Assembly (NCBI GenBank): GCA_014240285.1
Contig: JAAZXI010000001.1
Coordinates: forward strand, 15,593-79,592
Length of the DNA stretch: 64,000 nt
Source: Methanobacteriota archaeon
GTDB taxonomy: Archaea; Thermoplasmatota; Poseidoniia; Poseidoniales; Thalassarchaeaceae
Reading direction: 5' to 3'
In this document: positions 8,115 through 43,202 of the stretch, one piece after another
Position numbering within the stretch: the first letter of the stretch is position 1
Layout of the letters: each line of letters opens with the position of its first letter
Translations under genes and position numbers: made by a program
Notes under the pieces: generated by a model
Told to the model about the DNA's origin: nothing
The model's database searches: none
What the model saw: the letters and a program-made list of their open reading frames with translations, nothing else

Positions 8115-8118
8115 AATA

Positions 8119-8844: not shown

Positions 8845-8865
8845 TCGGTTCTATTCGCAGCCCGC

Positions 8866-8887: not shown

Positions 8888-8908
8888 TTATTTTCACCGT
8901 TCAGATTT

Positions 8909-9841: not shown

Positions 9842-9850
9842 TCACTAGTC
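9829..9850. repeat. 22-bp direct repeat, right copy (CCGGCTTTAGCATTCACTAGTC)
   Basis: It overlaps the stop of the esterase gene and the ATG of the RluA gene. Confidence 0.6.
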
Positions 9851-12019
9851 ATCATCGGCTCGTTGCCAGCCCAACCAACGCCGAACAGAGTCTGTGGTAG
9901 CCACCATGATGAACAGAGCTACCACTATGCCGCCTAGAAGCATCAGCGTGCGATCAACCTCCTCCTCCCACCGAGCGGCATCATTCGGGTAGAAGTCAAC
10001 ATTATCTCCAAACCCATCTCCATCAGAGTCCATCGTCTCATTAGGATCCAGGGGAAAAGCATCACTGTTGTCACCGACCCCATCTTCATCTGTGTCTAAC
10101 CATTCGTCTGCGTCGGAGGGAAACACGTCCATATTATCCCCAAACCCATCTCCATCAGAGTCTATCCATTCATTGGGGTCCTCTAGGAACGCGTCGGAGT
10201 TGTCGCCAACACCGTCTTCATCTGTGTCCAGCCATTCAGAAGCGTCTTCGGGAAAAGCGTCGGAATTGTCTCCAACACCATCCTCATCAAAATCGGACCA
10301 TTCCGAAGCATCTTGGGGAAACACATCACCGTTGTCACCGACCCCATCGAGATCACTGTCTACGGTCTCCAAATTATCATCCGGAAAAGCATCAGCATTG
10401 TCACCGACACCGTCTTCATCACTATCGTCCCACTCGCTTGCGTCCATCGGGAATTGATCGTCGACATCGGGGGCGCCGTCGCCGTCATCATCATTGTCCA
10501 CTACATCGCACTGCGAATCTCCGTCGCTGTCCACCGGAACCTCATCGGAATCCATCGGGTCAGTCAGGCAACTCGACTCGTCTGCGTCCGTCCACCCATC
10601 ATTATCGTCATCATTGTCAGCGTTGTCGCCAATCCCATCATTGTCGTTGTCTGAGTGCTCGGAAGCATCCAAACGAAAAGCATCCTCTGAATCCATCCAA
10701 CCGTCGTTGTCATCATCATCATCACTGTTGTCGCCGAAACCATCGCCGTCAGTGTCCACCCATTCATAGGGGTTCAAGGGAAAAGCATCCTCTGAATCCA
10801 TCCAACCGTCGTTGTCGTCATCTGGGTCGGAGTTGTCCCCCATTCCATCACCATCTGTGTCCTCCCACTCCATCGGATCACTTGGGAAAACATCCGAATT
10901 GTCCCCCACTCCATCACCATCTGTGTCCTCCCACTCCGTCGGATCACTTGGGAAAACATCCGAGTTATCTCCCACCAAATCGCCATCGGAATCGGCCCAC
11001 TCGTTCGGGTTGTAGATGAAGGCATCAACATCATCTCGGTAGTCGTCACCATCGGAATCGCGCACGAAGTCCTCTAGCGCCCACTCTAGTGACAGATTAG
11101 CCCACCCCGGGGCATTCATCGAGGGCGCGTGGCTGCCCCCGTTAATTCTCCAGTGCGACACCCTGTTGCCGTCGGCGCAGTTCAGATGCTCAAGCTCATC
11201 GGTCTCTGCAACATCATCAGAGCCGGTGATGTCGATGCTGCCGAGGTTTGTCCAACTCGCATCGCATCCCGATCTATCTGCCCAATACTCTGTTGATTCT
11301 GGTGCTGAAGGGTATGCCCCTCCCGTCAAGGTGCCTCCGTTGTACTGTATGACGCTGTCAGCTGTGCCGTGGACGTGCAGGATGTTTGGACTCCCTGTGT
11401 TCGGGCAGTCGTTTGAGAAATCCTCCCAAGTCGCTCCGTTTAGAGACACGATTGACTCGATGATACCACCCCTTTCACAAGCCATCCTGTGACTCATGAA
11501 AGCACCGTTGGAGTGCCCAATCAGTACCACACCCTCGGGGTCCGCCCCATAATTAAGGACAGCCTGATCAATCAGACTCTCGAGGAAACTCACATCGTCC
11601 ACCGAGGTCCCGAACAGGTTACAGCAGGCATTGGTAGCATTCCAGTACCGCATGGCTATGATATTCGAGGTACCGTCAGGGGTGATTAGAAGATGCTCAT
11701 TTTCGTGGACGCTGTCATACAAACTCATCCACGCGGCGTTGAGTGAGCCCCAACTAGAGTAACCATGCAAGGAGATGACCAGCGGCAACGGTCGGTCGTA
11801 AACGTGCCCCCCTGGCATAATCAGGGTGGCCGACCTGCCTTGCGAGGAAATCGTGGTAGTAGTGTGTTCATCGGTGTAGTTGATAGGGCCATAGCCATCG
11901 TTTGAGTCGGCCCATCGCCTATCTTCAGCCCCCCAAATCCCCTCCAGCTCGGAGCCAAATAACCCGGTCGCCACCAGCATCATGCAGACGAGAACCGGTG
12001 CGTAGAAGCGGGTGCTCAC
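9845..12019 (-). CDS. secreted alpha/beta-hydrolase (PHB-depolymerase/esterase-like) with about 18 thrombospondin type-3 Ca-binding repeats and a C-terminal TM anchor
   Basis: GHSNG nucleophile elbow, a long DxDxDGxGDNxD repeat array, and a C-terminal TM. The six-frame ORF (to 12289) runs through tRNA-Leu. The true start is therefore downstream of 12078; I placed it at about 12019 (V91 as a GTG start) or 11983 (M103). Confidence 0.7.
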   Translation of the reverse strand: MSTRFYAPVLVCMMLVATGLFGSELEGIWGAEDRRWADSNDGYGPINYTDEHTTTTISSQGRSATLIMPGGHVYDRPLPLVISLHGYSSWGSLNAAWMSLYDSVHENEHLLITPDGTSNIIAMRYWNATNACCNLFGTSVDDVSFLESLIDQAVLNYGADPEGVVLIGHSNGAFMSHRMACERGGIIESIVSLNGATWEDFSNDCPNTGSPNILHVHGTADSVIQYNGGTLTGGAYPSAPESTEYWADRSGCDASWTNLGSIDITGSDDVAETDELEHLNCADGNRVSHWRINGGSHAPSMNAPGWANLSLEWALEDFVRDSDGDDYRDDVDAFIYNPNEWADSDGDLVGDNSDVFPSDPTEWEDTDGDGVGDNSDVFPSDPMEWEDTDGDGMGDNSDPDDDNDGWMDSEDAFPLNPYEWVDTDGDGFGDNSDDDDDNDGWMDSEDAFRLDASEHSDNDNDGIGDNADNDDDNDGWTDADESSCLTDPMDSDEVPVDSDGDSQCDVVDNDDDGDGAPDVDDQFPMDASEWDDSDEDGVGDNADAFPDDNLETVDSDLDGVGDNGDVFPQDASEWSDFDEDGVGDNSDAFPEDASEWLDTDEDGVGDNSDAFLEDPNEWIDSDGDGFGDNMDVFPSDADEWLDTDEDGVGDNSDAFPLDPNETMDSDGDGFGDNVDFYPNDAARWEEEVDRTLMLLGGIVVALFIMVATTDSVRRWLGWQRADDD
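9920..11060. repeat. intragenic tandem repeats encoding the TSP3 motifs
   Basis: Periodic units of about 54-57 bp. They produce many spurious overlapping ORFs on both strands. Confidence 0.6.
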
Positions 12020-12077
12020 ACACTCTTCCTCCCGCACGCTGCTAAGAAACTGCCTCAGCAGCGCGTTTGTCAGTAGG

Positions 12078-12162
12078 TGGTGCAGAGGACAGGATTTGAA
12101 CCTGCGAAGCACTACGCACTGGGACCTCATCCCAGCCCCTTTGACCACTCGGGTACCTCTGC
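12078..12162 (-). tRNA. tRNA-Leu (anticodon GAG), long variable arm, CCA encoded
   Basis: Manual fold: acceptor GCAGAGG/CCTCTGC, anticodon loop ATGAGGT, variable arm TGCGTAGTGCTTCGCA, T-arm GGTTCAAATCC. Length 85 nt. Confidence 0.85.
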
Positions 12163-12215
12163 TTGCAGCATTAGCGAGACACCCGGCGTATATCAGAATG
12201 GCGAAGCGCCACCAC

Positions 12216-13082
12216 TCAGAAATCGAGCCCGTACTTCTGAGCCAACGGAGGCGACTCTCCAGTCTTGGCGAAGTAGTACAAAGAGACACGATTCACTGCT
12301 TCGCATGCACTGAAGAACAGAACGGAGATGGCTATTCCAGCGAACATAACCAAGATTCCCAACCCGCTTCCAATTTCCCCCAGTGCGAACAGTGGTAGAC
12401 AGATTACCACAATCAGTAGACAAACCAAGATGTTGATTATTCCAGTTCCAGTCGTCGAAACCACATCCTCCCCCCAAGTCTGCTTGAACAATTCCGGACT
12501 CTTCGACATACTCTCGCCAACGCCAATATTATCCAACACGATCATTGGAACGACGAAGAACGTCGCAATCCACCAAGCGACCTGTACGATGAAGGAGGCG
12601 ATGTGTCCGAATATACTCACTACAAGATTGTCCGATTGTTGCATACTTTGGAAGGCCGTTATAATCAAACCAACCGTACCTGAGATTAACCCCCATATGA
12701 CAATCTGGGGCAGGCACTTCATTGCCTGCTTAATACCATATGAAAAACTTGGATTTGTTCCAGCAGTCAGTCTCTCATGGGCGCTTGCGATTATAGCCGC
12801 GTTCCAGAATACAGTGATTATCGCTATTACCATGTAACTAAGGAAAGCGCCCACATAGACTCCACTCTCAGCACCTTCTTCACCTCCGACGAAGAATCCT
12901 AGGCCACCGGTTAGCGCCAAAATAGTAATTGCAGCAATAATTGAGAATATTCCTGAGAACAGCATGTAGGCCATGAGTTCGGGATCGGCTCTAACCACAT
13001 GCATCCCTAGTTTGGTTACCCTCCAGCCACGCCCTATTCTTGCTCTGAAACCCATCTTGGGCCCCTCACTTCTCATCATCAT
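12216..13082 (-). CDS. polytopic membrane protein, function unknown
   Basis: Six or more TM helices. Low GC. Confidence 0.5.
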   Translation of the reverse strand: MMMRSEGPKMGFRARIGRGWRVTKLGMHVVRADPELMAYMLFSGIFSIIAAITILALTGGLGFFVGGEEGAESGVYVGAFLSYMVIAIITVFWNAAIIASAHERLTAGTNPSFSYGIKQAMKCLPQIVIWGLISGTVGLIITAFQSMQQSDNLVVSIFGHIASFIVQVAWWIATFFVVPMIVLDNIGVGESMSKSPELFKQTWGEDVVSTTGTGIINILVCLLIVVICLPLFALGEIGSGLGILVMFAGIAISVLFFSACEAVNRVSLYYFAKTGESPPLAQKYGLDF

Positions 13083-13122
13083 ACCGTCGCCTGTATGGCC
13101 CCTACCTTCAAGATTGACCCGG

Positions 13123-13590
13123 TTATTCGAAGCTTACAGCATCACCAGGGATAACCACACCTTCGTCGACTACTGATGCGAGCCATCTGGACCAACCCAT
13201 CTCCAAATTGTGATCAATTCTGGAGAATTTCTGTTCTTTGAACGATTCACTAATCACACTACAAGGAGCACACGGCTCACTCAATTCAATAATCGCTCCT
13301 CCAACCTTGAACTTCATTCCCACTTTGAGAGTGGGCCAGTCAAGACCTTCGATTGTCAAGTTCTCGCCAGTAGATCCAATTTCGATAGGATGTCCCTCCC
13401 TCTGCAGATCATATATTCTTTCCAGAGAGAAAATACAAACTGCTCGTCCCGCATCATTATTCCTTTTCTCAGTACGGAACCTATTGTAATCCCCTTCGAC
13501 TCCATCAAGCCGTAGAGTTGCTGCCCTAACTGGTAGTTTAGGTACACCTCCATCACCTCGTACGTTCACGGAATGGACAATAGCGTTCAA
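13123..13590 (-). CDS. MOSC-domain protein
   Basis: Segment GENLTIEGLD…ELSEPCAPC is typical of MOSC. Confidence 0.65.
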   Translation of the reverse strand: MNAIVHSVNVRGDGGVPKLPVRAATLRLDGVEGDYNRFRTEKRNNDAGRAVCIFSLERIYDLQREGHPIEIGSTGENLTIEGLDWPTLKVGMKFKVGGAIIELSEPCAPCSVISESFKEQKFSRIDHNLEMGWSRWLASVVDEGVVIPGDAVSFE

Positions 13591-13654
13591 TCGAATGACC
13601 CCATGAAGTCCAACTCGATTTCAAGTCTATCAACCATTTCGAGGCTGCGAACCT

Positions 13655-14701
13655 TCAGAATGGCAACGACTTATCCAACCGATCGACCATTTCCAGATAT
13701 CGATTGGTGTGTTCTGTTCCAGGCACATTAACCACGAATTGCCAATAACGCCAGGCTGCGACTGCTAGGACCGCATAGCGATGCAGATCAGGAAGGGCTG
13801 TATGTTCTGCATCTGTCAATGGTCGAACTGACTGGTATCCGGCCAACAACGCATCCCACAATTCAGGAACTGGAAAACCACCCTTCCAGCCAAACCCAAC
13901 ATAGGTTGTCGCAAGATCCATCGCGAACGATTCTATACAGATTTCCTCAAAATCAAGTAGGGCGAGAACCTCCCCCTTCCGCCCAATCACATTGTCAGGG
14001 TACAGATCACCATGGATAATGCCACAGGGAAGGTCCTTCGAAATTCTTTGTTTGAGAAGATGTGTCTCCTCCTCCAGCATCTGTAGGAATGGCGTCATTG
14101 AATCCTCCTTCCGCGCATCTTTGACAAGCTTCTCCCAGAGGACATATCCAATCGAGAACGTGGTAGGAATGCTTTCATGAATTGGAACCCCATGCAACTG
14201 TGCCTGCGTCTTACCGAGTTCGTAGAGTGATGCAGTATCTGAGGGCAGCCAACCACCGTCGATATACGGCATCAACATCCACGCTAGATTATCCTTGACA
14301 AGCATCCATTCATTCTCTCCCAGTAGCAACGGGACAGGTGTCGGTACGCCGTGATCTGCGAGCCAACATGTATGCTTGATTAGCAGCTCCACTTCATCTG
14401 GAGACCTTTCATCCCAGATCTTCAGAACAAGCTGTGAGCCATCATTTAGGGTTAGTAGATAATTCGAATTTGCCCACCCCCCAGTAAGTGGCTGCATCTT
14501 ACTCAGTGGTGCCACTCCAGCAGCTGTCAACAGCCATGACGCATCTTCCACAGTGACATCGGTATACGCCATCAAGCCACCTTCACCGTTGGAGTTCATC
14601 ACTGATGACAATCGAGTACAGTCTCCCACCATCTCCGAGAGAGACCCCGACTGCCATGCAGAAACGTCAGCACGAGCACATATTGCTTCATCGGTCATCA
14701 T
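13655..14701 (-). CDS. APH/ChoK-family phosphotransferase (aminoglycoside/homoserine-kinase-like)
   Basis: GIIHGDLYPDNV (HGD catalytic loop) and DFEE motif. Confidence 0.65.
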   Translation of the reverse strand: MMTDEAICARADVSAWQSGSLSEMVGDCTRLSSVMNSNGEGGLMAYTDVTVEDASWLLTAAGVAPLSKMQPLTGGWANSNYLLTLNDGSQLVLKIWDERSPDEVELLIKHTCWLADHGVPTPVPLLLGENEWMLVKDNLAWMLMPYIDGGWLPSDTASLYELGKTQAQLHGVPIHESIPTTFSIGYVLWEKLVKDARKEDSMTPFLQMLEEETHLLKQRISKDLPCGIIHGDLYPDNVIGRKGEVLALLDFEEICIESFAMDLATTYVGFGWKGGFPVPELWDALLAGYQSVRPLTDAEHTALPDLHRYAVLAVAAWRYWQFVVNVPGTEHTNRYLEMVDRLDKSLPF

Positions 14702-14805
14702 TTTCTCTCAAATAACTCCAACCACTCTCGGCATACTTTTCATACAGGCACTCGGGGCCGCGGATATACAGACTGCGATATGCGACTCTGGTTGAGGAAG
14801 AGAAG

Positions 14806-15483
14806 ATGAAACCAATCTTGAGGAACCTATACCAGTTCATCAGGGACGCGGCCCATGTGCTCTTGCATGGAAATCTCGATTCTTCGGACTATATCATACT
14901 CGACGATAAAGAAGTCGTTTTCGCGAGCGTTGCCAAATCTGCGTGCACATCCATCAAGACCTCCATTGCGGAGGAGCCCCCCAATAGTCCTACGATACAC
15001 AAACACATCAGAGAGTTTTCACACAAGAGAATCCCTAAGGACAAACACTCTTACTTCGTTTTCACTTATGTCAGAAATCCATATGAGAGACTTGCTTCGT
15101 GCTACCGCAGTAAATTCAATCTTGAAGATAAATCAAAGTTTCTCTATAGCCACTATTTGTTCGGATATATGGGTAATAATGACACATTCGAGGAATTTGT
15201 CCGGAAAGTATCGAAAATCCCCGACTTCATGTGCGATCGCCACTTCAAGTCCCAGCACAGCATCATCTTCTCCAGCGGCGCAAAAGTCGATTATGTAGGC
15301 AAGGTTGAGGAATTACCTTCGGACTTCGAAGAGATTCGTCAGCGCTACGGATTCAGCGAACTCAAGGTCTTGAACAAATCTCAGGGGAAAAGCGCCGAGA
15401 TGCTCCTCACCGATGAGATTAGAGAACTAATTTACAACCGATTTAAGAAAGACTTTGAGACATTTGGATATGAAAAAGAATAA
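14806..15483 (+). CDS. carbohydrate sulfotransferase (Sulfotransfer_2 / CHST-like)
   Basis: 5'-PSB VAKSACTS, 3'-PB FTYVRNPYERLASCY, C-terminal DFETFGY. Very AT-rich codon usage. Confidence 0.75.
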   Translation: MKPILRNLYQFIRDAAHVLLHGNLDSSDYIILDDKEVVFASVAKSACTSIKTSIAEEPPNSPTIHKHIREFSHKRIPKDKHSYFVFTYVRNPYERLASCYRSKFNLEDKSKFLYSHYLFGYMGNNDTFEEFVRKVSKIPDFMCDRHFKSQHSIIFSSGAKVDYVGKVEELPSDFEEIRQRYGFSELKVLNKSQGKSAEMLLTDEIRELIYNRFKKDFETFGYEKE

Positions 15484-15572
15484 TCCTCAATTATTCAAAG
15501 AAGAAGTTTCGGACCTCATATTGCTTCTTCTCTCCGGTTAGGACTTAACATATCCTCAGCCACGCAACCCGC

Positions 15573-16514
15573 ATGCGCGCCATCCTTCCACAGCCAAACC
15601 TGCTCATTGTCGGGGCCCCGAAATCCGGAACTACGTCCCTTCTGATGTGGCTCAGAAGCCACCCAGAGGTCTACCACCCGTGGTTTGGAGCCGGACCTGA
15701 GGCCGTCGAGAGCGGATTCCTAATAGCAGGACCCACCGATATCCCCATTTCACCATCTAGGCCGAGAGGAACACTTCTGTTACCACATGATACCGACGTC
15801 GATCGCTACAAAGGGGAACCTTGGGTAATAGACAAATCCCCGCAGCACCTGTACTCAAGACGGGCGTTGGAGACCGTGCGTGATTTGATGCCTGACGCAA
15901 AGGTCATCATAGCCCTCAGAGACCCCTACGATCTTCTAATCAGTCAATATATGCAAATGTGGAAGGGCGTGAATTTTGACACCCCATTCGAGGAGCTGTA
16001 CGAAAAGATGCAGTCCCAAGGATGGGAGGCCAACACTGAGATTGCAGAGACCTGGGCCTTTCTCACATATCCCCGGTATTCCGAATTTGTTCGTGCATGG
16101 GTATCCGAACTTGGCTCCGACAGGGTGAGGGTTGTGAGGCTGGCCTCAATCGCAGGTAATGCATCAGGTGTGCTTCGGGAAATTTCTGAGTGGCTGGAAA
16201 TTAGCCCGAGTAAGATGCCTAGCAATCCCACGGCGAGGAACACTAGGGGAAAACTATCCAACTCTCCGATTAGAAAGTTCCTGAGGGAACCTCCCAAATG
16301 GGTGTTTACCTCTGCTAGGCTGCTGTTACCTAGCAGATCCGCTAGGAAGGCGCTCCTAGATCCAATTAGGAGGAGGGGGTGGAAGCACATTCCAGCGGAC
16401 AAGCCCGAGATCCCGCCAGAAATGGAGAGCGAAATCAGAGCGAGGCTGAAGGAGGATACCGAATTCTTCGAGGCACTCGATTCGCATTTACCCAGTGGCA
16501 CAATGATTGGCTAG
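15573..16514 (+). CDS. PAPS-dependent sulfotransferase
   Basis: 5'-PSB GAPKSGTTSL; 3'-PB IIALRDP. Confidence 0.7.
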   Translation: MRAILPQPNLLIVGAPKSGTTSLLMWLRSHPEVYHPWFGAGPEAVESGFLIAGPTDIPISPSRPRGTLLLPHDTDVDRYKGEPWVIDKSPQHLYSRRALETVRDLMPDAKVIIALRDPYDLLISQYMQMWKGVNFDTPFEELYEKMQSQGWEANTEIAETWAFLTYPRYSEFVRAWVSELGSDRVRVVRLASIAGNASGVLREISEWLEISPSKMPSNPTARNTRGKLSNSPIRKFLREPPKWVFTSARLLLPSRSARKALLDPIRRRGWKHIPADKPEIPPEMESEIRARLKEDTEFFEALDSHLPSGTMIG

Positions 16515-17428
16515 CGTTCGAACGATTCCAACCAATGACCGGTCGAGAATCCGGTTAGTTCCTCAAACTTCTCTAAGTCAGGCACAACCTCTCCTTCACA
16601 GATTTGATAGTGCCCCTTAGTCAGTAACGAATCCTCCCCCTTCCTACTTATGAGGGGGAGGTCATAGATGTTCAGAGATCGTTTCTGTAGGGGCTTCGCA
16701 AGCACATCCCTTACTGACTTTGGAAGTATGCGTACTGCGGATTTGAAGACCCTTCCCAAGGTAGTGGCCCCCCTCCTTCCTTGTGAGGTGTTCGCATTCT
16801 TCTGAGACAGGTAATCGTATTCGAATTTTCCTAGACCGAAATGAGAATTGATTTCCCCGAGGACAACATCGGGCGCAGTTCTCATTTTCTTACTATCGAT
16901 AATCAGAAAACTCTCTCTTTCAAATCCCTCCAACCAGCGAGCCATTGAGGCTGACCAGACTGAATCGTCCTTCAGCCTCTGGTCTCCCCACGCGGTCTCG
17001 AAGTCGGACCAATCTGCTCCATGCCTACGGTCTGCCATGTTGTCCCGGACCATCTTCCAATGACTGAAAGCCCTCTCAATTGGCTCCCTTAGGCAAATCA
17101 CAAAACGGGCTCCAGGGTTGATCTGGAGCACCCTGTTTGGGGCCAAGGGGCAGGAAAACGCATGTACCGAACCATCGACTCTGAAACCATTGCCTGAGAA
17201 AGCCCGTCCATATTCATCTAGATCCGGGTCGGATGCGTCTCTCCCAAAGGTTCCATGATGACTGGCCAAGATATTAGGCTCCTTGGGGGAAGAGAAGTCA
17301 ACACTGGGATTCTGTGAAAGGACTCCCGCTAGCCAAGTCGTACCACACTTTGGCAGACCAAGCAGGAAGCCGTCCACCAGAGGCCTTTCTTCCACACATG
17401 CATACTTCCCCGAGCGCTTATGAGTCAA
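16511..17428 (-). CDS. PAPS-dependent sulfotransferase
   Basis: 5'-PSB GLPKCGTTWL; 3'-PB ICLREPIERAFS. There is a 4-bp overlap with the upstream GT2 gene. Confidence 0.7.
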   Translation of the reverse strand: MTHKRSGKYACVEERPLVDGFLLGLPKCGTTWLAGVLSQNPSVDFSSPKEPNILASHHGTFGRDASDPDLDEYGRAFSGNGFRVDGSVHAFSCPLAPNRVLQINPGARFVICLREPIERAFSHWKMVRDNMADRRHGADWSDFETAWGDQRLKDDSVWSASMARWLEGFERESFLIIDSKKMRTAPDVVLGEINSHFGLGKFEYDYLSQKNANTSQGRRGATTLGRVFKSAVRILPKSVRDVLAKPLQKRSLNIYDLPLISRKGEDSLLTKGHYQICEGEVVPDLEKFEELTGFSTGHWLESFER

Positions 17429-18258
17429 TCGGGCCTTTCTATCGAATGTCTGGGCGCTACCGGCTCATCTTTCACAACTCTCCTCACCGCCCAGAAGATT
17501 GCGAGTAGCCAGGCCCTTGTCCACAGCGACCACGATTGGGTAGATGTTAGTGGCTTCACATCTCCCGGCTTGTGAACCGATCTCATCTCTTTTCTGAGTT
17601 TTCTAAGGTCACCATTCATCACACTTCTTCTAGAAATCATTCCGGCCCCACATTCGACAAACTTCTTGGGATTGCAATGGTAGAGAAGTTGCTCAGAACG
17701 AGGGTAGGCACCGTAGACCGCTCCGTGGATTCCTATTGGTTCGGGATGGTGGACCTTGCACTGAGGCGCCCAGGCCATCTCCTGCCCTGCATCGATTATC
17801 CTCCAAGCAAGATCGGTGTCCTCTCGGTGCAGAAAGTACCTCTCGTCAAACCCCCCAATCTGCTCTAGCACATCCCTTCTGACCGCCATGTTTGCGGTCT
17901 TGAAACGGTCCCACTTGAGCCGGTTTGGAGGATCAAAATCGATTATTTTACCATCTTGTCCAGTGGTACTAATGCTACCCTCAATTCCTCCCAAATCATG
18001 ATTCTGAAACACTTCTTGGATGTTCTCAATCCAAGACTCATCAGCGATACAATCGTCATCGATGAATGCGACGTACTTCGCAGAACCTCTCCGCCAACCG
18101 ATGTTTCGGGATATCCCAGGCCCTTGATCCAATTCCGAATCATCCACTACCTCGATAGATTTCGCCAACAGGGTTTGCCTTTCTAAAGAGGCCAAACACG
18201 ACGCCAACGCCTCGGGCCTTCTGAAGGTAGGAATCACCACATCTACTTCCGAATTCAC
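17425..18258 (-). CDS. family 2 glycosyltransferase
   Basis: VVIPTFRRPE…IDDDC (GT2 DxD region). Confidence 0.75.
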   Translation of the reverse strand: MNSEVDVVIPTFRRPEALASCLASLERQTLLAKSIEVVDDSELDQGPGISRNIGWRRGSAKYVAFIDDDCIADESWIENIQEVFQNHDLGGIEGSISTTGQDGKIIDFDPPNRLKWDRFKTANMAVRRDVLEQIGGFDERYFLHREDTDLAWRIIDAGQEMAWAPQCKVHHPEPIGIHGAVYGAYPRSEQLLYHCNPKKFVECGAGMISRRSVMNGDLRKLRKEMRSVHKPGDVKPLTSTQSWSLWTRAWLLAIFWAVRRVVKDEPVAPRHSIERPD

Positions 18259-18286
18259 AGCTCTTGCAGACGTTCTGTGGTAATTA

Positions 18287-18655
18287 GTGTCGCGTACAAT
18301 TCAAGAATCGGTAGTGTCACCCAAGGGCATGGTCAACCTAGCCGCGCCGGTTCTCGGAGGATTTCAAGATTCTTTGGATACTGCTTTCGGAGTAACAGCT
18401 GGGTGGTGGGTCGGGCACCTGCTCGTAGTCGGCATACTGGCTCTCAGCGTGGTCGCGCTACAGAACCGACATCACATCACCAACCATTCCGGATTCGGGC
18501 GCAGCACGCTGATGGACGCATCCGCGACACTTGCTCTCACAGCCGTCCAATACAGCGTTTTCACCGGCTCTTTCGGGTGGCCCGATGGAATATCTCTTTC
18601 TCTATCGATAATCTGCACTCTGGCACTCAGGTGGCACGTGCTAATCGTCGAATGA
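18287..18655 (+). CDS. small membrane protein (hypothetical)
   Basis: TM-like stretches. An alternative frame (18277..18693) is Arg-rich junk. Confidence 0.3.
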   Translation: MSRTIQESVVSPKGMVNLAAPVLGGFQDSLDTAFGVTAGWWVGHLLVVGILALSVVALQNRHHITNHSGFGRSTLMDASATLALTAVQYSVFTGSFGWPDGISLSLSIICTLALRWHVLIVE

Positions 18656-19594
18656 AGTCCTTCTACGCCTCACCAGGACAACAGCAACGGTGAGCACCAG
18701 CACCACGATCACCCCACCGATGATGATTGGTGCCTCGTCTGAGTACTCTCCGAAGACTGAGTTGTTGCCAGTAAGGTCGATGGTACCGATTCCGATACTC
18801 TTCGGCTCGACTTTAACATCAATCGCATTGGTGCTGGGACATGATTTTGGCTCTGACCCATCATCCTCGAGCACTATAATGCAACCCTCCCATGTGGTTC
18901 CGAGGTTTGATGGGGTGGCTATTTGGAACTGACAGTTCTTTGAGGAATCACTAGATTGAATCGCAATGTTGCAGGGTGCACTTTGATCAACGAAACCAGA
19001 CGGCCAAGAAGAAACTCCGTCATCATTAATCATCACAGCACGGTATTTGATCGAGGAACCCTCATTACTTGTGCAAGAAATAGAAGTTGAGAACACAATC
19101 ACTTCTCCAGCCTCTACTGTACCTCCTCCTTGTCCAAGATTATGGGTACAACTCGTGAACTCAGCAACGATAATCGTGACTTCCACGGATTCGGGCGAAG
19201 TGATGAAACTCACATCCACTCCACTGGCTTGAGTTACTTGGGCGGTAACATTGGCTACATAGGATCCCGAACTATGGCCTAGATCACCTCGAAAAATTAC
19301 CTCAAACCCCATTTCTGAATTTGCAGGAACAGTCATGCTACCAGGTGCGGCGTAAGCGAAACCACCACTTTGTACAGTAATATCAACTTCCTCAGGATGC
19401 ACTGAGGGATTCTCCAACATGCAGTTTGAAATGGCAGTTCTAGTCGAACCAGGAGACACGTCCATCTCAGGCGGATCATCGCAGGAAATGCTAATCTCGG
19501 GGAAAATTCCGGTTTGAGCTGAAATCGTTGGCATGCACCCTACCAATAACCCCATGAGGAGTACTAATACGAGCACAATAACCCTTCTTGACAC
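18641..19594 (-). CDS. secreted cell-surface protein with C-terminal TM anchor and many N-glycosylation sequons
   Basis: Signal peptide, several N-x-S/T sequons, and a C-terminal TM followed by RRRR. Confidence 0.5.
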   Translation of the reverse strand: MSRRVIVLVLVLLMGLLVGCMPTISAQTGIFPEISISCDDPPEMDVSPGSTRTAISNCMLENPSVHPEEVDITVQSGGFAYAAPGSMTVPANSEMGFEVIFRGDLGHSSGSYVANVTAQVTQASGVDVSFITSPESVEVTIIVAEFTSCTHNLGQGGGTVEAGEVIVFSTSISCTSNEGSSIKYRAVMINDDGVSSWPSGFVDQSAPCNIAIQSSDSSKNCQFQIATPSNLGTTWEGCIIVLEDDGSEPKSCPSTNAIDVKVEPKSIGIGTIDLTGNNSVFGEYSDEAPIIIGGVIVVLVLTVAVVLVRRRRTSFDD

Positions 19595-19675
19595 GACCCT
19601 GGCTTATGCCTCAACCGGATAGATATTCTCCATTCTACCTTCACTTTGGTACGGTTTCTGACTCAAAGCATTCAT

Positions 19676-19694
19676 GGCGACCCCTAGGGTCGCC
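19676..19694. promoter_or_regulatory. perfect 19-bp palindrome GGCGACCCCTAGGGTCGCC in the chaperonin leader
   Basis: An 8-bp inverted repeat around CTA, ending 8 nt before the ATG at 19702. Confidence 0.3.
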
Positions 19695-19701
19695 CGAATC
19701 C

Positions 19702-21273
19702 ATGAGCGAGGGTGCGGCCAAGCCTCCTGTCGAAATTGTCAAGCCGGAGACAAATGTCACCAGCGGCACCGATGTCCAAGACAAGCTAATCAGCGCGGCC
19801 CGTGTCTTCTCGGACCTCCTGAAACCGACTTTCGGGCCACGCGGACTCGACAAGATGCTGTACAAGACGGACGGCACCACTGCAGTCACCAACGACGGCG
19901 CCAAGATAGTCGCCGAGTTGATGGTGAAGCACCCTGCTGCCAAAATGATGGTCTCGATGGGAAACTCTCAGGAGGAGGCGTGTGGTGACGGCGTCACCAC
20001 CACCATGCTGCTGTGTGGTTCTCTGCTCCAGGAGGCCAGCAATCTACTGCGCAAAGGTCTGCACCCACTAACTCTAGTCGACGGCTACCGCTCGGCACTC
20101 ATCGCAGCCGTCGGGCAGATGAACCAAGACACCCATAGTGTGAGTGATGCACGCCTTGCTGCAGTTGCCGAGACGGCACTGCGTGGCAAGGGCGCGGAAG
20201 CAGCGCTAGACCACTTCTCCCCAATCATAACTGACGCTCTGAGCATACTCGCCGCCAACCGCAACGATGCCGGTGCCGAGCATGTGGCGATGTTCAAGAC
20301 CGGCACTGGTGGGTTGCGCGATTCCCGACTCATCCGAGGTGTCGTGGTCAACCGCCGTGTCTTGATGGACAGCCTGCCGAACCGACTGAACGATGCCAAG
20401 GTGGCGGTGCTCGGAGGCGATCTGAAAATTCGATCAATGACTCGCGACGTCGAGATTCAAATCACCAACGCTGATCAACTCGACTCCTTTGTTGACGCCG
20501 AACAAGCCCGCAAGCAGGCACTTGCAGACGCGGTAATCGCCAGCGGAGCTGGCGTGGTACTATGCACGGGCGAGGTTGACCGAGACATCCTGCATCATCT
20601 GGCAGAAGCCGAGGTGCTCGCGGTGGGAGAACTAGATGAGTCGGAAATTCGCAACGCGGCAGACTCGGTAGGGGCCAACATCGTCGAGTCAATACTCGAC
20701 ATCGAAACCGCGGACCTCGGAGTTTGTGGTTCGTTGGTTTGGGAACGTCGCGAAGCTTCGGACCAAGTCGAGGACATCATCAGAATCGACGATTGCCCCA
20801 ATCCGAGAGTAGTCACTATCGAAGTCGGCGGAGGTGGCGATACCGGCACTGAGGAGATCATCCGTGGACTGCATGATGCTCTGAGAGCGACCTCACTGGC
20901 TCTCGCTGTCGGCGAGCTGCTGCCTGGCGCTGGTTCAATCCATGCCCGTATGGCCCACGCTGTTCGACGTGCCTCTGAGGCCGAACCAGGCCGGGCGAGA
21001 CTGGCTATGGATGCCTACGCCCGCGCCCTCGAAACAATTCCAGCGGCCTTGGTCGAGAACTCCGGTGGCGATGCGCTGGATCAGATTCTCGAGCTGAGAG
21101 CCGCTGCGAGGGAGGACGGCGACTTCGTCGGAATCACCCCCGAGGGAGTAGTGGGGTCGGCAGAGGGAGTATGGCATCCAAGGGCTGTCATCGAGGACGG
21201 TCTGGAGTCAGCGACCGAGACCGCTATGAGCATGCTCAGGATAGACCAAGTCATCTCCGCGAGAGGCGACTAG
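19702..21273 (+). CDS. ths: thermosome / group II chaperonin (Cpn60/TCP-1 family), divergent
   Basis: GPRGLDKML (compare GPKGMDKML), GDGVTTT, and a C-terminal equatorial domain. Start taken at the internal ATG at 19702 (MSEGAAK...). Confidence 0.8.
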   Translation: MSEGAAKPPVEIVKPETNVTSGTDVQDKLISAARVFSDLLKPTFGPRGLDKMLYKTDGTTAVTNDGAKIVAELMVKHPAAKMMVSMGNSQEEACGDGVTTTMLLCGSLLQEASNLLRKGLHPLTLVDGYRSALIAAVGQMNQDTHSVSDARLAAVAETALRGKGAEAALDHFSPIITDALSILAANRNDAGAEHVAMFKTGTGGLRDSRLIRGVVVNRRVLMDSLPNRLNDAKVAVLGGDLKIRSMTRDVEIQITNADQLDSFVDAEQARKQALADAVIASGAGVVLCTGEVDRDILHHLAEAEVLAVGELDESEIRNAADSVGANIVESILDIETADLGVCGSLVWERREASDQVEDIIRIDDCPNPRVVTIEVGGGGDTGTEEIIRGLHDALRATSLALAVGELLPGAGSIHARMAHAVRRASEAEPGRARLAMDAYARALETIPAALVENSGGDALDQILELRAAAREDGDFVGITPEGVVGSAEGVWHPRAVIEDGLESATETAMSMLRIDQVISARGD

Positions 21274-35639: not shown

Positions 35640-36773
35640 CTAATCGACAAGCCACACCCGCAACCGCCGCAGACCCTCGTAAATGGCCTCCTCGTCGGTG
35701 GCGTACGAAATCCTGACGAAGCCCTCGCCACCGGTGATTAGTGAGGTCGGAATGAGTTGAACACCCGCTTCCAGCGCACCATCAGCGAACTCGATATCAG
35801 TCATGCCCGTACCAGTGACATCGACGAACACGTAGAACGCACCCTCGGGCTCAACAATCCTCAGTCCGGGCAACTCTGAGAGCCCGGCAGTCATTATCCC
35901 ACGCCGCTTCAGGTACTGTCGGTTGAATTCCTCGACCGAGTCGTCGCACCCTAGAGCAACTGCGGCTGCGTGCATCATGAATGTGGGGACGTGAGAGGCG
36001 GAGTTGGCCTGACTCTTGATAGCGGCGCGCATAGCATTCGGAGGACCGGTCAGGAAGCCCAATCTCATCCCCGTCATCGCCCAGGACTTCGACCAGCCGT
36101 TGACAATCAGAGTGCGCTCCGCGCCACCTGGGAGAGCATAGGGGGAGACGTGAGGGTAGTCCATCCAGACCAGTCTAGCATAGATCTCGTCGGAGACAAT
36201 CCAGAGGTCGTGCTCGACAGCGATGTCGACGATGGCCTGCAATTCGTCCGGGGTGAACACTGCTCCGGTGGGGTTGCAGGGGGAATTGACCAGTATCATT
36301 CGAGTCCTGTCGGTGACCGCGGCTCTGATGGCATCGATGTCGGGATGGAAGTTGTCCTTGCGAACCGGCACGTTCACCGGAACCGCCCCGATAAGCTCCA
36401 GCATCGGCTCGTACGAGGCCCAAGAGGGGGCTAGCAGAATTGCCTCGTCTCCCGGCATCGTGGTGATGAGGAACGAATACAGCAGCGCCTGCTTGGCGCC
36501 AGGCGTGATGACCACATCGTCTGCACCGACCTCGACAGAATGATGCCTTGCTAGGTAGTTGGACACCGCTTGGCACAGTTCCATCGAACCCGCACCCCTA
36601 GTGTACTTCGTGTTACCATCTTCCAGCCCCTTGATCGCCGCTTCGATGACCGCGCGCGGGGTGTCGAAACCAGGCTCTCCCACCGTCCAACGGATGACCC
36701 CGGGTTCTGGAGGTTGCAGATACGGCGCGAAGCCGACGCCAAGACCCTCGTAGCGAGAGGAAATCTCAGGCAT
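35640..36773 (-). CDS. class I PLP aminotransferase (aspartate aminotransferase-like)
   Basis: NGWSKSWAMTGMRLGF (SK…R motif). Confidence 0.8.
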   Translation of the reverse strand: MPEISSRYEGLGVGFAPYLQPPEPGVIRWTVGEPGFDTPRAVIEAAIKGLEDGNTKYTRGAGSMELCQAVSNYLARHHSVEVGADDVVITPGAKQALLYSFLITTMPGDEAILLAPSWASYEPMLELIGAVPVNVPVRKDNFHPDIDAIRAAVTDRTRMILVNSPCNPTGAVFTPDELQAIVDIAVEHDLWIVSDEIYARLVWMDYPHVSPYALPGGAERTLIVNGWSKSWAMTGMRLGFLTGPPNAMRAAIKSQANSASHVPTFMMHAAAVALGCDDSVEEFNRQYLKRRGIMTAGLSELPGLRIVEPEGAFYVFVDVTGTGMTDIEFADGALEAGVQLIPTSLITGGEGFVRISYATDEEAIYEGLRRLRVWLVD

Positions 36774-39815: not shown

Positions 39816-40394
39816 TCACGGTGACTGTCGGATAAGCTTGAGAATCTTGTACGGAAGCAGCGCCCGATTAACAGGAGTCACCTCGAGAATCCTACCGTCG
39901 TCACGCCTTCTGATGTCCTGCAGTAGTGGGTGACGGCTCTTCTTGTGCAGCGTCAATAGCGTCGGCATATCGTATTCGAGAGCCGCTCTGACCACGCCTA
40001 CGAAACCCTCGCTCTCGACCGAGAACTTCCCGACCTCGTCGACGACGAGTATCTCGCAGTTACCCACGGCGTTCTGGATAGCCGGCACACCGACCCTGTC
40101 AATCTCGCTAGGGTCTATGCCGTATCCTAGGATTCGATTCCGCGAATCTATCTCTCGATGTGCCATGACCCCGCGCTCCCCTGTTTCGATATCTATGCAT
40201 GCGAATCCGACCCTCTCACCATCCTCGATGATTGCCTCGGTTCTCATTCCTCCTATCACTCTCGGGGCAGAGGAGACAGAACCACGGGCCTCCGCTTTGT
40301 ACTCGTCAATGACCATACTGACGACCTTGTCTAGGACTGCGGACTTCCCAGATCGGGGCAGACCCGTGATTCCTATTTTCGGATATATACCCAT
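39816..40394 (-). CDS. THEP1-type nucleoside triphosphatase
   Basis: P-loop GITGLPRSGKS, and the DEVGKFS…LTLH pattern of the THEP1/MJ1559 family. Confidence 0.7.
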   Translation of the reverse strand: MGIYPKIGITGLPRSGKSAVLDKVVSMVIDEYKAEARGSVSSAPRVIGGMRTEAIIEDGERVGFACIDIETGERGVMAHREIDSRNRILGYGIDPSEIDRVGVPAIQNAVGNCEILVVDEVGKFSVESEGFVGVVRAALEYDMPTLLTLHKKSRHPLLQDIRRRDDGRILEVTPVNRALLPYKILKLIRQSP

Positions 40395-40537
40395 TTCTTG
40401 TTCCTCGTATACCACCGCATAAGCGATGGAACGCTCCTCGTACGGCACCCTCGGATAATAGTCTGTTTGGTGCTAAGGCATGATTGATGTCGGAATACGG
40501 AAAATTAATTCCGACAATTTGACTTCTGACTTCCGCT

Positions 40538-42535
40538 TTACTGCCTCAAAGCGTAATTTAGGGCACCTTCGGTGGATGGCGGAGGCAACGGCAAACTCTC
40601 AATCTCGTAGTTGTTCACATTGTTGTTAGCTGCCCACGCCCTTGACCACAGATTGAGGGCCTCAGAGTTAAGTTGGGCGGCCACAAAGAGAAGACCCTCA
40701 TCGACACTGCCGTGTTCCTCGGCGAGACTGTCGAGGACAGCCTCGGGAAGTTGCAGGAAGTTCACCGAGTTGCCCAGCACGCAGTCCGGTGCGACGACCG
40801 CCCAACGAAGACGACGCTCTTTCTGGGCATTGACGATGGCCTGACAGGCCACTCTGGAGATGCCGCGTGGCTCGATCGGACCCTTCCACAGAGCCTGAGA
40901 GCGCTCGATGGACTCCTCGTCGATTTCGACGTCGTAGGCCGGGTGACTGATTCTGACTTCTCGGTCTTCAAGGCAAAAATGAGCTCCTCTGATGAATGGG
41001 ACGCCTTGCGAATCAGTACACCAGTCACTGATACCAGCCGACCAGTTGGTCTGATCGATCTCACCGACCCTGACGCGAATCGGCTCATCGGTCGGGTTGA
41101 GCCAGTTACCTTCCTCGCCCAAACGAGGCTGGTCGGCGAGATCACCTATCGCCTTGAGCACGGCGTTCCTAGTGTAGCGGTCGCGGGGCATCCTAGGGAC
41201 GGCCCAAGTCATATCGGTCCAAACAGACCACGGGCCGCGCTCCATCTCAAGGAAAGGGGTCTTGCTGTCCAAGCCTGTGCTAGCCGAGAGATCATGGATT
41301 TCGAGTGGGCCGAAACTGGTCATCACCTCGGTGCTGCCACCAATGGTCAGCCCGACGACTAAGACTCCTTGGGAGGCGCCTGGGAATACTCTCTGAGGCT
41401 CGGGGAACGACCACGATGACACCCATTGGTTACCCTCCACCATCAACTTGCGTAGAGCCACGCTGCTCTTCTCGCGAAGCAGGGCGTCAGGAATAATCAT
41501 GCGAATCCTGCCACCCGCTCGAACCAATTTCATGGAACGCTCTAGGAACAGCCTGTATAGATTCACGTTGCCACGCAGAGCTGCGAACCTAGGGCTACCG
41601 TCGGACTCGGTCGTACTACGCAGCGACTGTGATAGTTGCTTACGTAACTCGCTGCCGTCAGGATAACCTCGAAAACGGTCCTTGATGCGCAGCCACGGCG
41701 GCCGGCTGACTAGCAGCCTTGGAGACTCAGTCCACGGCCAGTCGCCGCGCAGGGAGTCAGCGCAACAGATGCTCTCCTCCAGAATCAACTCAGCCTCGCT
41801 CCGGCCGATTCTGGCCTCGTCTCCTTCACCGAGAAGATTGACTAGACCAACTTTTGCTAGAGTCAGAAGCACCCTCCTCCTAGTACAGGCCACGGCGATT
41901 TCGGAGGAGTCAACCATCTGCATGCCACGCAGCAGCCGCAGGGTGTCTGCCCGAATTTCGTTCGGCGAGAAACCCTCGCTCCGGAGAATATGGATTTTGA
42001 TGGCCCGACAGGGCACCACGCCACCACCCACAGCAGGATCCGCGAAAGGCAGGGGGATCCCCGAACGGGTTCGCTCCCCTGCTTCGACCGCCTCGTCACC
42101 GGGCTCCTCGCAGCCGCCCCTCGCAGCCTCGTTAAGGCGCTCTGCGTATTCCCTGAAGCCAGGTGGCATCGCTGCCAGTGAAAGGGTGGCCGGGGGCCTC
42201 TTGTTGGCCTTGTTACGTGTACTCTTCAACTCATCCGCCAAGACAGCTTGAACTAGCTTGCTGGGAGTGGAGTAGGCACCTCTGGGAGACCTTCCGTCGT
42301 TGTCCGCCTCATAGCGTGAGAGCAGGTGCTCGACAACTGCTCCGGGCTCTGAGAGTAGTCCGGCAGGCAGTGTGGGCCAGTGGTTTGGCATGGTGGCTGC
42401 GACTGGAGTTCCATGGGTGACTGCCTCCTCCCACGAATCCAGCCAACCTGAGATCTGCTCGACCCGGTCCGGGCACACGTGGTCGAGGCGTGCGTACCAT
42501 CCCGATGCATCGCTCGCCATGGTACTACAAGCCAC
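40538..42535 (-). CDS. TaqI/Eco57I-like gamma-class N6-adenine DNA methyltransferase with TaqI_C-like C-terminal domain
   Basis: Motif X GAYSTPSKLV, motif I DPAVGGGVV, an atypical motif IV LLVSRPPW, and a C-terminal LNSEALNLW…ESLPLPPP (TaqI_C-like). Confidence 0.55.
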   Translation of the reverse strand: MACSTMASDASGWYARLDHVCPDRVEQISGWLDSWEEAVTHGTPVAATMPNHWPTLPAGLLSEPGAVVEHLLSRYEADNDGRSPRGAYSTPSKLVQAVLADELKSTRNKANKRPPATLSLAAMPPGFREYAERLNEAARGGCEEPGDEAVEAGERTRSGIPLPFADPAVGGGVVPCRAIKIHILRSEGFSPNEIRADTLRLLRGMQMVDSSEIAVACTRRRVLLTLAKVGLVNLLGEGDEARIGRSEAELILEESICCADSLRGDWPWTESPRLLVSRPPWLRIKDRFRGYPDGSELRKQLSQSLRSTTESDGSPRFAALRGNVNLYRLFLERSMKLVRAGGRIRMIIPDALLREKSSVALRKLMVEGNQWVSSWSFPEPQRVFPGASQGVLVVGLTIGGSTEVMTSFGPLEIHDLSASTGLDSKTPFLEMERGPWSVWTDMTWAVPRMPRDRYTRNAVLKAIGDLADQPRLGEEGNWLNPTDEPIRVRVGEIDQTNWSAGISDWCTDSQGVPFIRGAHFCLEDREVRISHPAYDVEIDEESIERSQALWKGPIEPRGISRVACQAIVNAQKERRLRWAVVAPDCVLGNSVNFLQLPEAVLDSLAEEHGSVDEGLLFVAAQLNSEALNLWSRAWAANNNVNNYEIESLPLPPPSTEGALNYALRQ

Positions 42536-42593
42536 GCGACCGGACGCCCTTCTTTGAAGGGCACGGTCGCTTGTTAAACGGTCTCAACAGTAA

Positions 42594-43202
42594 TCACAAG
42601 CCAAGTCCGAAACAGTCCTGCTCCAACTCGGTTATGACTCTCTTCTGCAGCAACCAGGCGACTGCTTCGTCTACCTCATCAGTGCGGATACCAACCACAT
42701 CCAGTTTGTCCACAAAGAGGTCGAAGTGAACCTGGTCGTCACCGCTTTCCAAAGCCTCCTCGATGATGCTCAGTACGTGCTCGGCCACGATGGCTAGTAG
42801 GGGGTCGTCCCCAGCGTCCAGCGAGCCGTAATCGACCGCGGCCACGCCCTCATCGACCTCATCATCCGAGATCTTCTCGGAGACGTTCTTCTCGTACACG
42901 TCGAAGAGATTCCTCTGGTGTGGATCGGTCCAAGTGGTCCTCTCGACGACCTCCCTCTGGCGGCGCAGACGCTTCACCAGAGTCTCGATGCGATGCAGCC
43001 GCTGCTCTAGGCGCAGGCGTTCGCGGCCCAGATGACCCTCGACGAGCTCGAGTTCGTCGGTGGCGCACTCGTCCAGCCATTCAGACAGATTCCAAGACGG
43101 GTCCAGCCTAAGCATGGTCTCCCACAACCTCGCAACCGAGTCAGGCAGTGACCTGACATCTATTCGTGAGCTTCCACTTCCATCGTCTGCCGAACGGTCC
43201 AT
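42594..43202 (-). CDS. acidic hypothetical protein, co-oriented upstream of the methyltransferase
   Basis: ORF only. I recognised no domain. Confidence 0.4.
   Translation of the reverse strand: MDRSADDGSGSSRIDVRSLPDSVARLWETMLRLDPSWNLSEWLDECATDELELVEGHLGRERLRLEQRLHRIETLVKRLRRQREVVERTTWTDPHQRNLFDVYEKNVSEKISDDEVDEGVAAVDYGSLDAGDDPLLAIVAEHVLSIIEEALESGDDQVHFDLFVDKLDVVGIRTDEVDEAVAWLLQKRVITELEQDCFGLGL

Follow-up and report, generated by a model that had tools for sequence, protein, structure and literature searches.

Lineage-wide exchange of the catalytic Asn for Arg or Lys in a core methyltransferase homologue of Marine Group II archaea

What becomes of an adenine methyltransferase when the catalytic residue of its motif IV is exchanged for an arginine? 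This question is raised by a gene in a 64,000-nucleotide stretch of contig JAAZXI010000001.1 (positions 15,593 to 79,592 of the forward strand, assembly GCA_014240285.1), which stems from an archaeon of the Thalassarchaeaceae within the order Poseidoniales (Marine Group II, MGII); the whole stretch is referred to as the window in the following. The gene encodes a 665-aa homologue of gamma-class methyltransferases of the TaqI/CamA/Alw26I type that carries RPPW in motif IV and thus departs from the pattern (D/N/S)-P-P-(Y/F/W) of a catalytic motif IV. We describe this as a lineage-wide, selected replacement of the catalytic Asn by Arg or Lys in a core archaeal methyltransferase homologue. As Marine Group II comprises some of the most abundant archaea of the surface ocean and is uncultured, it is worthwhile to define those of its core genes whose role is unknown.

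Residue 278 of the methyltransferase homologue

A first-pass annotation of the window, made from the letters of the sequence alone, had noted an Arg in motif IV in place of an otherwise invariant residue, and alignment of homologues bears this out. Among the 120 closest homologues about 100 carry RPPW, 19 carry NPPW and one carries KPPW. NPPW is found throughout the P0242 side of the family (104/104 homologues, Poseidoniaceae-labelled ones included), and all of 80 full-length outgroup proteins of the bacterial type feature NPP(Y/F/W). In a non-redundant alignment, residue 278 is N in 42/42 Asn-type sequences and 6/6 outgroups and R (34) or K (2) in the Arg/Lys clade, and it is the sole column that is at least 90% conserved in both groups and yet differs between them. 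Throughout the Arg/Lys clade (about 150 sequences with identities down to about 51%) the position is occupied by Arg, rarely by Lys and by nothing else. The Arg/Lys state is thus clade-wide, with Asn everywhere outside.

Motif IV aligns free of indels as hh-(N/R/K)-P-P-(W/Y)-x-R-x-K. A canonical NPPW that has been shifted by an indel is therefore not the source of the Arg, as the N of Asn-type homologues sits in exactly the same column. Sequencing error is likewise ruled out by the occurrence of AGA, AGG or CGN in 58 independent genomes. Our locus set comprises 83 close loci from the Arg/Lys clade and the Asn-type clade that is its sister plus six deeper Asn-type lineages, 89 in total, and the best 80 loci each originate from a separate genome. 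In the 83 close loci, codon 278 reads AAT/AAC (N) in 22, AAA/AAG (K) in three, AGA/AGG (R) in 48 and CGN (R) in ten cases, and the series AAY, AAR, AGR, CGN can be passed through in single-nucleotide steps.

An outgroup-rooted neighbour-joining tree places a large Asn-type clade first, and MGIIb-O1, which is also Asn-type, appears as sister to a clade that holds Arg or Lys only. The grouping of O1 with the Arg/Lys sequences is recovered in 60/60 bootstraps of the methyltransferase alignment. On the alignments and trees, Asn is the ancestral state at position 278, and the ancestral protein possessed a canonical NPPW gamma-class active site. An independent tree calculated for neighbouring genes (NTPase, GcvH and RNase H) yields the same clades as the methyltransferase tree and renders the Arg/Lys-carrying genomes monophyletic in 57/60 bootstraps. 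One ancient change from Asn to Lys/Arg at the base of one large MGIIb (Thalassarchaeaceae) clade thus appears as the most parsimonious history. The Arg/Lys state is old, with identities within the clade going down to about 51-55%.

Apart from residue 278, the protein exhibits what is expected of its class. Motif X, motif I, LLVSRPPW and the C-terminal stretches LNSEALNLW (residues 622-630) and ESLPLPPP (residues 646-653) are all found where the annotation had seen them, and the two open reading frames (ORFs) of 665 and 202 aa with the 58-bp gap between them are also present as described (Table 1). The linear order typical for the gamma class is observed, i.e. motifs X, I, II, III, IV ... VIII followed by a C-terminal recognition domain. 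The S-adenosylmethionine (SAM)-binding motif I, (D/E)-x-x-x-G-x-G, is accompanied by the acidic residues D209 of motif II and D260 of motif III, both of which are kept in the window protein. In motif X, G86 and P91 are invariant across the Poseidoniales family, and G86, T90 and P91 occur in 6/6 outgroups. G172 in motif I is invariant in the family and the outgroups, and the same is true for D166 except for one E among 42 Asn-type sequences. At residue 174 the window protein features Val instead of the Phe that is nearly invariant in Asn-type proteins (41/42 Asn-type sequences and 6/6 outgroups have F, the Arg/Lys clade F21/V13/L2). Alignment with homologues suggests that an ATG at 42520 (MASDASGWY...) is the likely true start, which would result in a protein of 660 aa and a gap of 73 bp.

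Profile and structure searches agree with the annotation in that we deal with a homologue of TaqI/Eco57I-like N6-adenine methyltransferases without a nuclease domain. A methyltransferase profile is matched above threshold: PF07669 (Eco57I methylase) scores 31.4 bits against a gathering score of 25.3 (E 2.4e-7), the match being confined to residues 319-384 (model positions 105-171) downstream of motif IV, and it is found in 15/15 family members tested. The two further models that had been proposed for the search, PF12950 (TaqI_C) and PF02384 (N6_Mtase), gave no match at E<=1 in the window protein and none at E<=0.1 in the 15 members. The C-terminus had been described as TaqI_C-like; this holds at the level of the fold (Foldseek), but not for PF12950. 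TIGR02987 (Alw26I/Eco31I/Esp3I) matches residues 491-655 with 89.8 bits against a cut-off of 353.5 (E 1.6e-25); Asn-type homologues reach 83-91 bits and the nearest outgroup proteins 235-293 bits. Generic models for type II methyltransferases from PADLOC also match weakly, PDLC03237 among them over residues 301-654. An AlphaFold2 (AF2) model of the methyltransferase homologue (predicted local distance difference test, pLDDT, 79; predicted template-modelling score, pTM, 0.75) finds CamA, M.BseCI, M.TaqI, BrxX/PglX and BpuSI as its top Foldseek matches (E 1e-14 to 1e-10). The fold matches to CamA, BseCI and TaqI extend over the catalytic and the recognition domain (alignments of 500-670 columns for CamA and TaqI), and motifs V and VI can be aligned to TaqI in sequence.

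The family as a whole stands apart. When 1.84 billion representative proteins were searched exhaustively, the family turned out to have just two full-length representatives at 50% identity, and below the family the score falls from 866 to 119 bits, the next proteins being Alw26I-like enzymes of about 480-1170 aa (mostly about 550-750 aa). This drop marks the family as an isolated branch that derives from type II adenine methyltransferases and is specific to its lineage. An N-terminal Trp-rich extension adds to its distinctness. It is highly conserved and predicted with confidence (pLDDT 84-95 over residues 11-80) to form helices at residues 10-20, 24-41 and 64-79, and outgroup matches to the family profile begin at about position 150 at the earliest, mostly at about 250.

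Selection on the family and the possible role of the Arg-type protein

Replacement of a catalytic residue under continued purifying selection is one mark of a pseudoenzyme, and this is the pattern observed: N278R/K is fixed in at least 58 species-level loci, and the median pairwise ratio of nonsynonymous to synonymous substitutions (dN/dS) amounts to 0.046 among Asn-type and 0.062 among Arg-type genes. Counted by parsimony and related to branch length, substitutions are equally frequent in the two groups (6748/9.31 vs 5347/7.43). As only Arg or Lys is ever present at 278, selection acts on the cationic residue itself. An orphan methyltransferase gene that was inactivated recently and is now decaying towards loss would also exhibit a replaced catalytic residue, and some cofactor and recognition residues are indeed relaxed in sub-lineages. 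However, among the 83 close loci the ORF is nearly always full-length (five were dropped from the codon analysis and not individually inspected), the dN/dS of about 0.06 and the overall substitution rate match those of the Asn-type genes, and the Arg/Lys state is of considerable age. We therefore consider decay extremely improbable, more so than any other explanation discussed here.

Constraint has nevertheless changed in places. Twenty-five sites show no changes in the Asn-type clades and at least three in the Arg/Lys clade; 13 of the 25 lie at residue 490 or beyond. Among the relaxed sites are R545 (19 changes), T496 (12), W617 (10) and D209 of motif II. Eighteen sites follow the opposite pattern and all of these are situated at or before residue 474 (Fisher p 1.6e-4). 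F174 of motif I and F384 of motif VIII, invariant or nearly so in Asn-type proteins and outgroups, vary only in the Arg/Lys clade. PPW, D166, G172 and D260 are retained in 36/36 sequences of that clade. We scored mean deviations at the 156 sites that are invariant in the big Asn-type clade, 49 of which reside in the recognition domain. The Asn-type sister MGIIb-O1 deviates at 5.9 of the 156 sites, 1.3 of them in the recognition domain. The corresponding values are 8.0 and 1.7 for the Cys-Arg subclade, 11.9 and 2.5 for the clade of the window protein, 13.4 and 6.2 for the S2 lineage, 17.7 and 9.3 for the T lineage and 23.0 and 13.5 for the K lineage. Taken together, these patterns suggest a selective regime that has changed in the Arg/Lys clade, and unevenly so between lineages. 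Most Asn-type proteins have Arg at residue 441 where the Arg/Lys clade has Asp, but a compensating exchange of charges was ruled out, since D441 is also present in the Asn-type sister and R441 in the Cys-Arg subclade.

In characterised N6-adenine and N4-cytosine methyltransferases, the D, N or S of motif IV accepts a hydrogen bond from the target amino group, and the carbonyl of the Pro that follows likewise serves as a hydrogen-bond acceptor for this group. A guanidinium or ammonium group is unable to accept a hydrogen bond and should disfavour a developing positive charge on N6, so that adenine-N6 methylation has probably been lost. We see this loss as the most likely consequence of Arg/Lys at 278, a judgement in which confidence and doubt are about balanced. 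The annotation had offered inactivation or altered chemistry as possibilities, and both stay in contention.

We favour, with a similarly even measure of confidence, the idea that the Arg-type protein is a putative non-methylating DNA- and SAM-binding factor that is kept for a regulatory or structural role. The Rossmann methyltransferase fold and the TaqI-like recognition domain would be maintained. SAM binding would probably be retained, given intact motifs X, I (D166, G172), II (D209) and III (D260), and as the window lineage keeps nearly all ancestral residues of the recognition domain, the DNA target would probably still be bound. The Asn, whose side chain as an acceptor places and polarises the N6 amino group, would be exchanged for a positively charged donor, and a methyl group would no longer be transferred to adenine N6. 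Strict retention of Arg/Lys would point to a separate function for the long, cationic side chain. It is conceivable that R278 plugs the aromatic cage for adenine (W281/F384) by cation-pi stacking or that it touches the cofactor. In a regulatory role, the protein may act at the conserved palindrome that precedes its own gene (see below).

Several observations weigh against this picture. Of the 145 residues without variation among the 121 Asn-type sequences, the window protein retains 139, and the recognition domain in its clade is barely more diverged than that of the Asn-type sister (2.5 vs 1.3 deviations at 49 sites). Essentially the catalytic residue alone, plus F174V, appears altered in the window protein. 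Because it is nearly intact, the argument from relaxation rests mainly on the other Arg/Lys lineages. In addition, PPW, motifs I and III and the Arg/Lys are all strictly conserved, which would suit a working active site equally well. As to the origin of the replacement, the tree based on the methyltransferase only supports monophyly of the Arg/Lys clade in 15/60 bootstraps, and the Asn-type sister clade joins one Arg subclade in 22/50 bootstraps. A reversal in O1 or a parallel change at 278 is therefore possible.

The protein could also be an active SAM-dependent transferase, in which (R/K)PPW serves as a working motif IV that is either tolerated or redirects the reaction to another atom, base or substrate. 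Here, a nucleophile, for instance, might be aided by a cationic hydrogen-bond donor, or the geometry of SAM would be altered. The exclusive occurrence of Arg/Lys at 278, the conservation of the remaining motif residues, the low dN/dS and the near-complete retention of Asn-type invariant residues in the window lineage all fit such an enzyme, and where the recognition domain has changed in other lineages, this could represent shifts in specificity. On the other hand, N is the only residue at this position in 80 outgroup enzymes, we found no methyltransferase paper in the literature on RPPW, KPPW or RPPY motifs, and D209, F174 and F384 are eroded in parts of the Arg/Lys clade. Moreover, a cation beside N6 is anti-catalytic for methylation of an amino group according to the established mechanism. 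We consider an active transferase a serious alternative, if a rather unlikely one. It is more doubtful still that (R/K)PPW is a selected functional variant whose conserved cation, placed beside the methyl group of SAM and the Trp/Phe cage, confers either a new transferase chemistry or target or the function of a base-flipping "reader" that senses SAM or modified bases. A new target might be an acceptor, an anionic nucleophile or a different atom of the base, while a reader might control genes by way of the conserved palindrome in front of the reader gene itself. If true, such a variant would represent an undescribed use of the amino-methyltransferase scaffold in archaea that rank with the most abundant ones of the plankton.

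A further explanation extends to the whole Poseidoniales family including its Asn-type members, which may not be DNA methyltransferases at all but have RNA, a protein or a small molecule as substrate or serve as a scaffold, the resemblance to DNA methyltransferases being inherited from an Alw26I-like ancestor. The gap from 866 to 119 bits that separates the family from real type II enzymes would agree with this, as would the conserved N-terminal extension of 80 residues and an acidic insert, both of which are unique to the family, and the housekeeping genes in its surroundings. A study on methylomes from marine metagenomes, in statements at the level of clades, reports GATC across archaeal metagenome-assembled genomes (MAGs), mostly from Poseidoniia, and other motifs sporadically, and mentions no clade-wide archaeal N6-methyladenine (m6A) motif besides GATC (PMC8919816). 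Still, the top structural matches in both domains are all DNA adenine methyltransferases bound to DNA, the region resembling a recognition domain is strongly conserved in Asn-type proteins, and their NPPWxRxK corresponds to NPPYxRxK in the outgroups. We regard a non-DNA function of the entire family as improbable.

The family offers a natural experiment, in which the catalytic Asn of an order-wide orphan methyltransferase homologue has been switched to Arg/Lys and Asn-type sisters are at hand as controls. Raw kinetic data for an Arg-type genome already exist, because locus L019 (BPDA01000038.1, MAG CM1_200m.P32) stems from the PacBio marine methylome study (PMC8919816); its protein is 83% identical to that of the window and has its Arg encoded by CGG. 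The case can inform on roles of orphan methyltransferases beyond methylation, on the origin and retention of pseudoenzymes and on the tolerance or use of a cation by motif IV.

Genomic neighbourhood

Relatives of the methyltransferase homologue were detected in 331 species-representative genomes when one genome per GTDB species was scanned, and all record titles listed among them are MAG labels of the Poseidoniales/MGII type. There is apparently one copy per genome. A gene for a THEP1-type NTPase adjoins the methyltransferase gene downstream on the same strand in 89/89 loci and is followed in nearly all of them by genes for a protein of about 113-133 aa without a family match, for GcvH and for RNase H. 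An IDH-like dehydrogenase is also encoded nearby, and the GC content of the region is native. With its fixed synteny, native GC content and wide distribution, the methyltransferase homologue is a vertically inherited core gene of Poseidoniales (Marine Group II) and not part of a mobile restriction-modification (R-M) or defence island. The term orphan, used in the annotation, describes it correctly. The constant presence of the NTPase gene may reflect conserved synteny or a functional link. By eye, the window copy of the ~113-133-aa protein has two hydrophobic, membrane-like segments.

Table 1. Positions of the features discussed in the text, given for the window unless a locus is named
Feature	Position	Strand	Remarks
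THEP1-type NTPase (PF03266)	39816..40448	-	Pfam E 4.7e-36
Methyltransferase-homologue ORF	40538..42535	-	665 aa, GTG start; gamma-class, TaqI/CamA/Alw26I-like
C-terminal domain, equivalent of TaqI/Alw26I-type target-recognition domain	40541..41068	-	residues 490-665
Motif IV LLVSRPPW	41693..41716	-	residues 274-281; R278 = CGG at 41702-41704
Motif I DPAVGGGVV, SAM-binding loop	42014..42040	-	residues 166-174
Motif X GAYSTPSKLV	42251..42280	-	residues 86-95
N-terminal helical, Trp-rich extension of about 80 residues	42296..42535	-	confined to the Poseidoniales family
Hairpin/palindrome GACCGTGCCCTTCAAAGAAGGGCGTCCGGTC	42536..42570	-	minimum free energy -30.7 kcal/mol, z -3.5
202-aa acidic protein	42594..43202	-	pI 4.4; 48 D+E vs 23 K+R
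TerB-domain genes	L084:4481-5842		
TerB-domain genes	L085:4689-5917		
TerB-domain genes	L086:2993-3880		
TerB-domain genes	L087:3072-3923		
TerB-domain genes	L088:3133-4029		
TerB-domain genes	L089:3054-3939		

The acidic nature of the 202-aa protein and its position directly upstream on the same strand are as the annotation had it. Conservation of the pair is graded: the 202-aa gene is present in 83/83 loci of the Arg/Lys clade and the Asn-type O1 sister, and it is absent from this slot in all six of the deeper Asn-type lineages, where one or two proteins with a TerB domain (PF05099) are encoded instead. The arrival of the 202-aa gene predates the change from Asn to Arg, and the gene has therefore no specific tie to that change. 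Whether the two types of neighbours are related was addressed by profile comparison, and hhalign with profiles on both sides gave a probability below 2%. A single BLASTP comparison resulted in E 0.004 and three collinear patches can be seen by eye; homology is unproven. Homologues of the 202-aa protein number 959, and the source names listed are all MAG labels of Poseidoniales, Thermoplasmatota or Euryarchaeota, one JGI functional label aside. Its AF2 model (pLDDT 65) consists of a long helix (residues 39-89), a disordered acidic linker (91-130) and a three-helix bundle (134-186). In a search of PDB structures this model found no match below E 1, only weak winged-helix hints and no nuclease fold, and Pfam, NCBIfam and PHROG contain no family for the protein. 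The suspicion that it might be a nuclease of the PD-(D/E)xK or another type is not substantiated by these results.

The same evidence bears on the proposal that the pair constitutes a diverged R-M or anti-phage module with the 202-aa protein as nuclease or effector partner. It is true that PADLOC type II methyltransferase, MADS2 and BREX PglX models match weakly, that the PGAP pipeline calls one homologue BREX-1 PglX and that the two genes are adjacent and co-oriented in 83/83 close loci. Yet every defence-model score is far under its cut-off, the gene is near-universal, apparently single-copy and syntenic across an archaeal order, it has native GC content and is surrounded by genes for an IDH-like dehydrogenase, an NTPase, GcvH and RNase H, and its neighbour lacks a nuclease fold or family and gives way to TerB-domain genes in the deeper lineages. 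A defence module, which had been among the suggestions of the annotation, is not supported for a native-composition core gene of 331 genomes with housekeeping neighbours and no nuclease, and we deem it very improbable. Public labels convey a different impression: P0451 from Candidatus Poseidonia sp. is named "BREX-1 system adenine-specific DNA-methyltransferase PglX" (PGAP) and others "Eco57I R-M methylase domain". These current labels point to defence systems that are not present. The lack of BREX or R-M genes near comparable loci suggests that such names over-interpret the domain.

The intergenic gap holds a conserved element. A hairpin in front of the methyltransferase ORF contains CCTTCAAAGAAGG at 42548-42560, and the palindrome CCCTTCAAAGAAGGG extends from 42546 to 42562. 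In 66/88 loci, two deep Asn-type ones among them, its core TTCAAAGAA (at most one mismatch) precedes the GWYAR codons by 51-59 nt. Matches to TTCAAAGAA are present in 69/88 loci altogether, three of these 134-136 nt upstream. The element occurs once in the window, and an Rfam search of the region revealed no family match. Its constant position makes the TTCAAAGAA palindrome a candidate gene-specific promoter or operator of the methyltransferase-like gene. The annotation had considered an operon with the 202-aa gene probable. Co-orientation of the two genes is borne out, but co-transcription is not established, because the 58-bp gap holds this conserved promoter- or operator-like element.

Some observations in the locus set and the window touch on other matters. 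On a 3.0-Mb contig (ERZ26167216), the Asn-type locus L084 combines the methyltransferase homologue with the NTPase gene beside genes for Ser/Thr protein kinases, and GcvH and RNase H are found outside their usual positions; this contig possibly belongs to a larger-genome relative of Marine Group II. In the window itself, the stretch from about 8000 to 20000 has a GC content of 0.47-0.52 compared to about 0.58 elsewhere, with a tRNA-Ala (8768-8844) at its start and a tRNA-Leu (12078-12162, minus strand) inside, and possibly represents a variable genomic island. As predicted by ARAGORN, the same tRNA-Leu lies within a long ORF (9845-12289) and a tRNA-Ile (35741-35822, minus strand) within another, aminotransferase-like one (35640-36773). 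In these overlaps, either the tRNA prediction or the extent of the ORF is spurious.

Comparison with known systems

The features that define a type II R-M system, an adjacent cognate endonuclease and a sporadic or mobile distribution, are not encountered, with housekeeping neighbours in 89/89 loci. The best match at the level of sequence families is the Alw26I/Eco31I/Esp3I group of type IIS adenine DNA methyltransferases (TIGR02987), with which the gamma-class motif order and the NPP(Y/W)-x-R-x-K context are shared. In contrast to that group, the window gene has neither a partner endonuclease nor a fused C5-methyltransferase (cf. P0306). It belongs to the chromosomal core genes of a single archaeal order, its TIGR02987 score stays well below the cut-off as detailed above, and its product adds the N-terminal extension, the acidic insert and the Arg at motif IV.

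BREX PglX/BrxX and MADS2 share the Eco57I-type methyltransferase domain, as is apparent from structural matches (9EWZ, 8C45) and weak profile matches. The window protein reaches 18.3 bits against a cut-off of 720 for MADS2 and is about half the size of PglX. In a profile scan at the NCBIfam level it matched none of the BREX models, and none of the 89 loci contains BREX or MADS genes.

By structure, M.TaqI, M.BseCI and CamA (PDB 2ADM/1G38, 7QW5 and 7LNI) come closest, with E values of 1e-14 to 1e-11 and target-normalised template-modelling (TM) scores of 0.5-0.64. Sequence identity to them is as low as 12-15%, and the window protein has an Arg at the catalytic position. All three enzymes have a canonical (D/N)PPY and proven m6A activity, and CamA is itself an orphan, lineage-conserved enzyme.

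METTL14, with EPPL for DPPW, and DNMT3L are catalytically dead methyltransferase homologues that are kept as partners or regulators. A search for motifs of a second amino-methyltransferase, which could act as an active paralogue, found none in the window. The analogy is that motif IV or catalytic residues are replaced while purifying selection preserves the fold and a large part of the surface, as appears to be the case here. METTL14 and DNMT3L belong to unrelated lineages, however, and form heterodimers with an active paralogue, whereas the protein from the window has a conserved cation in place of the lost residue.

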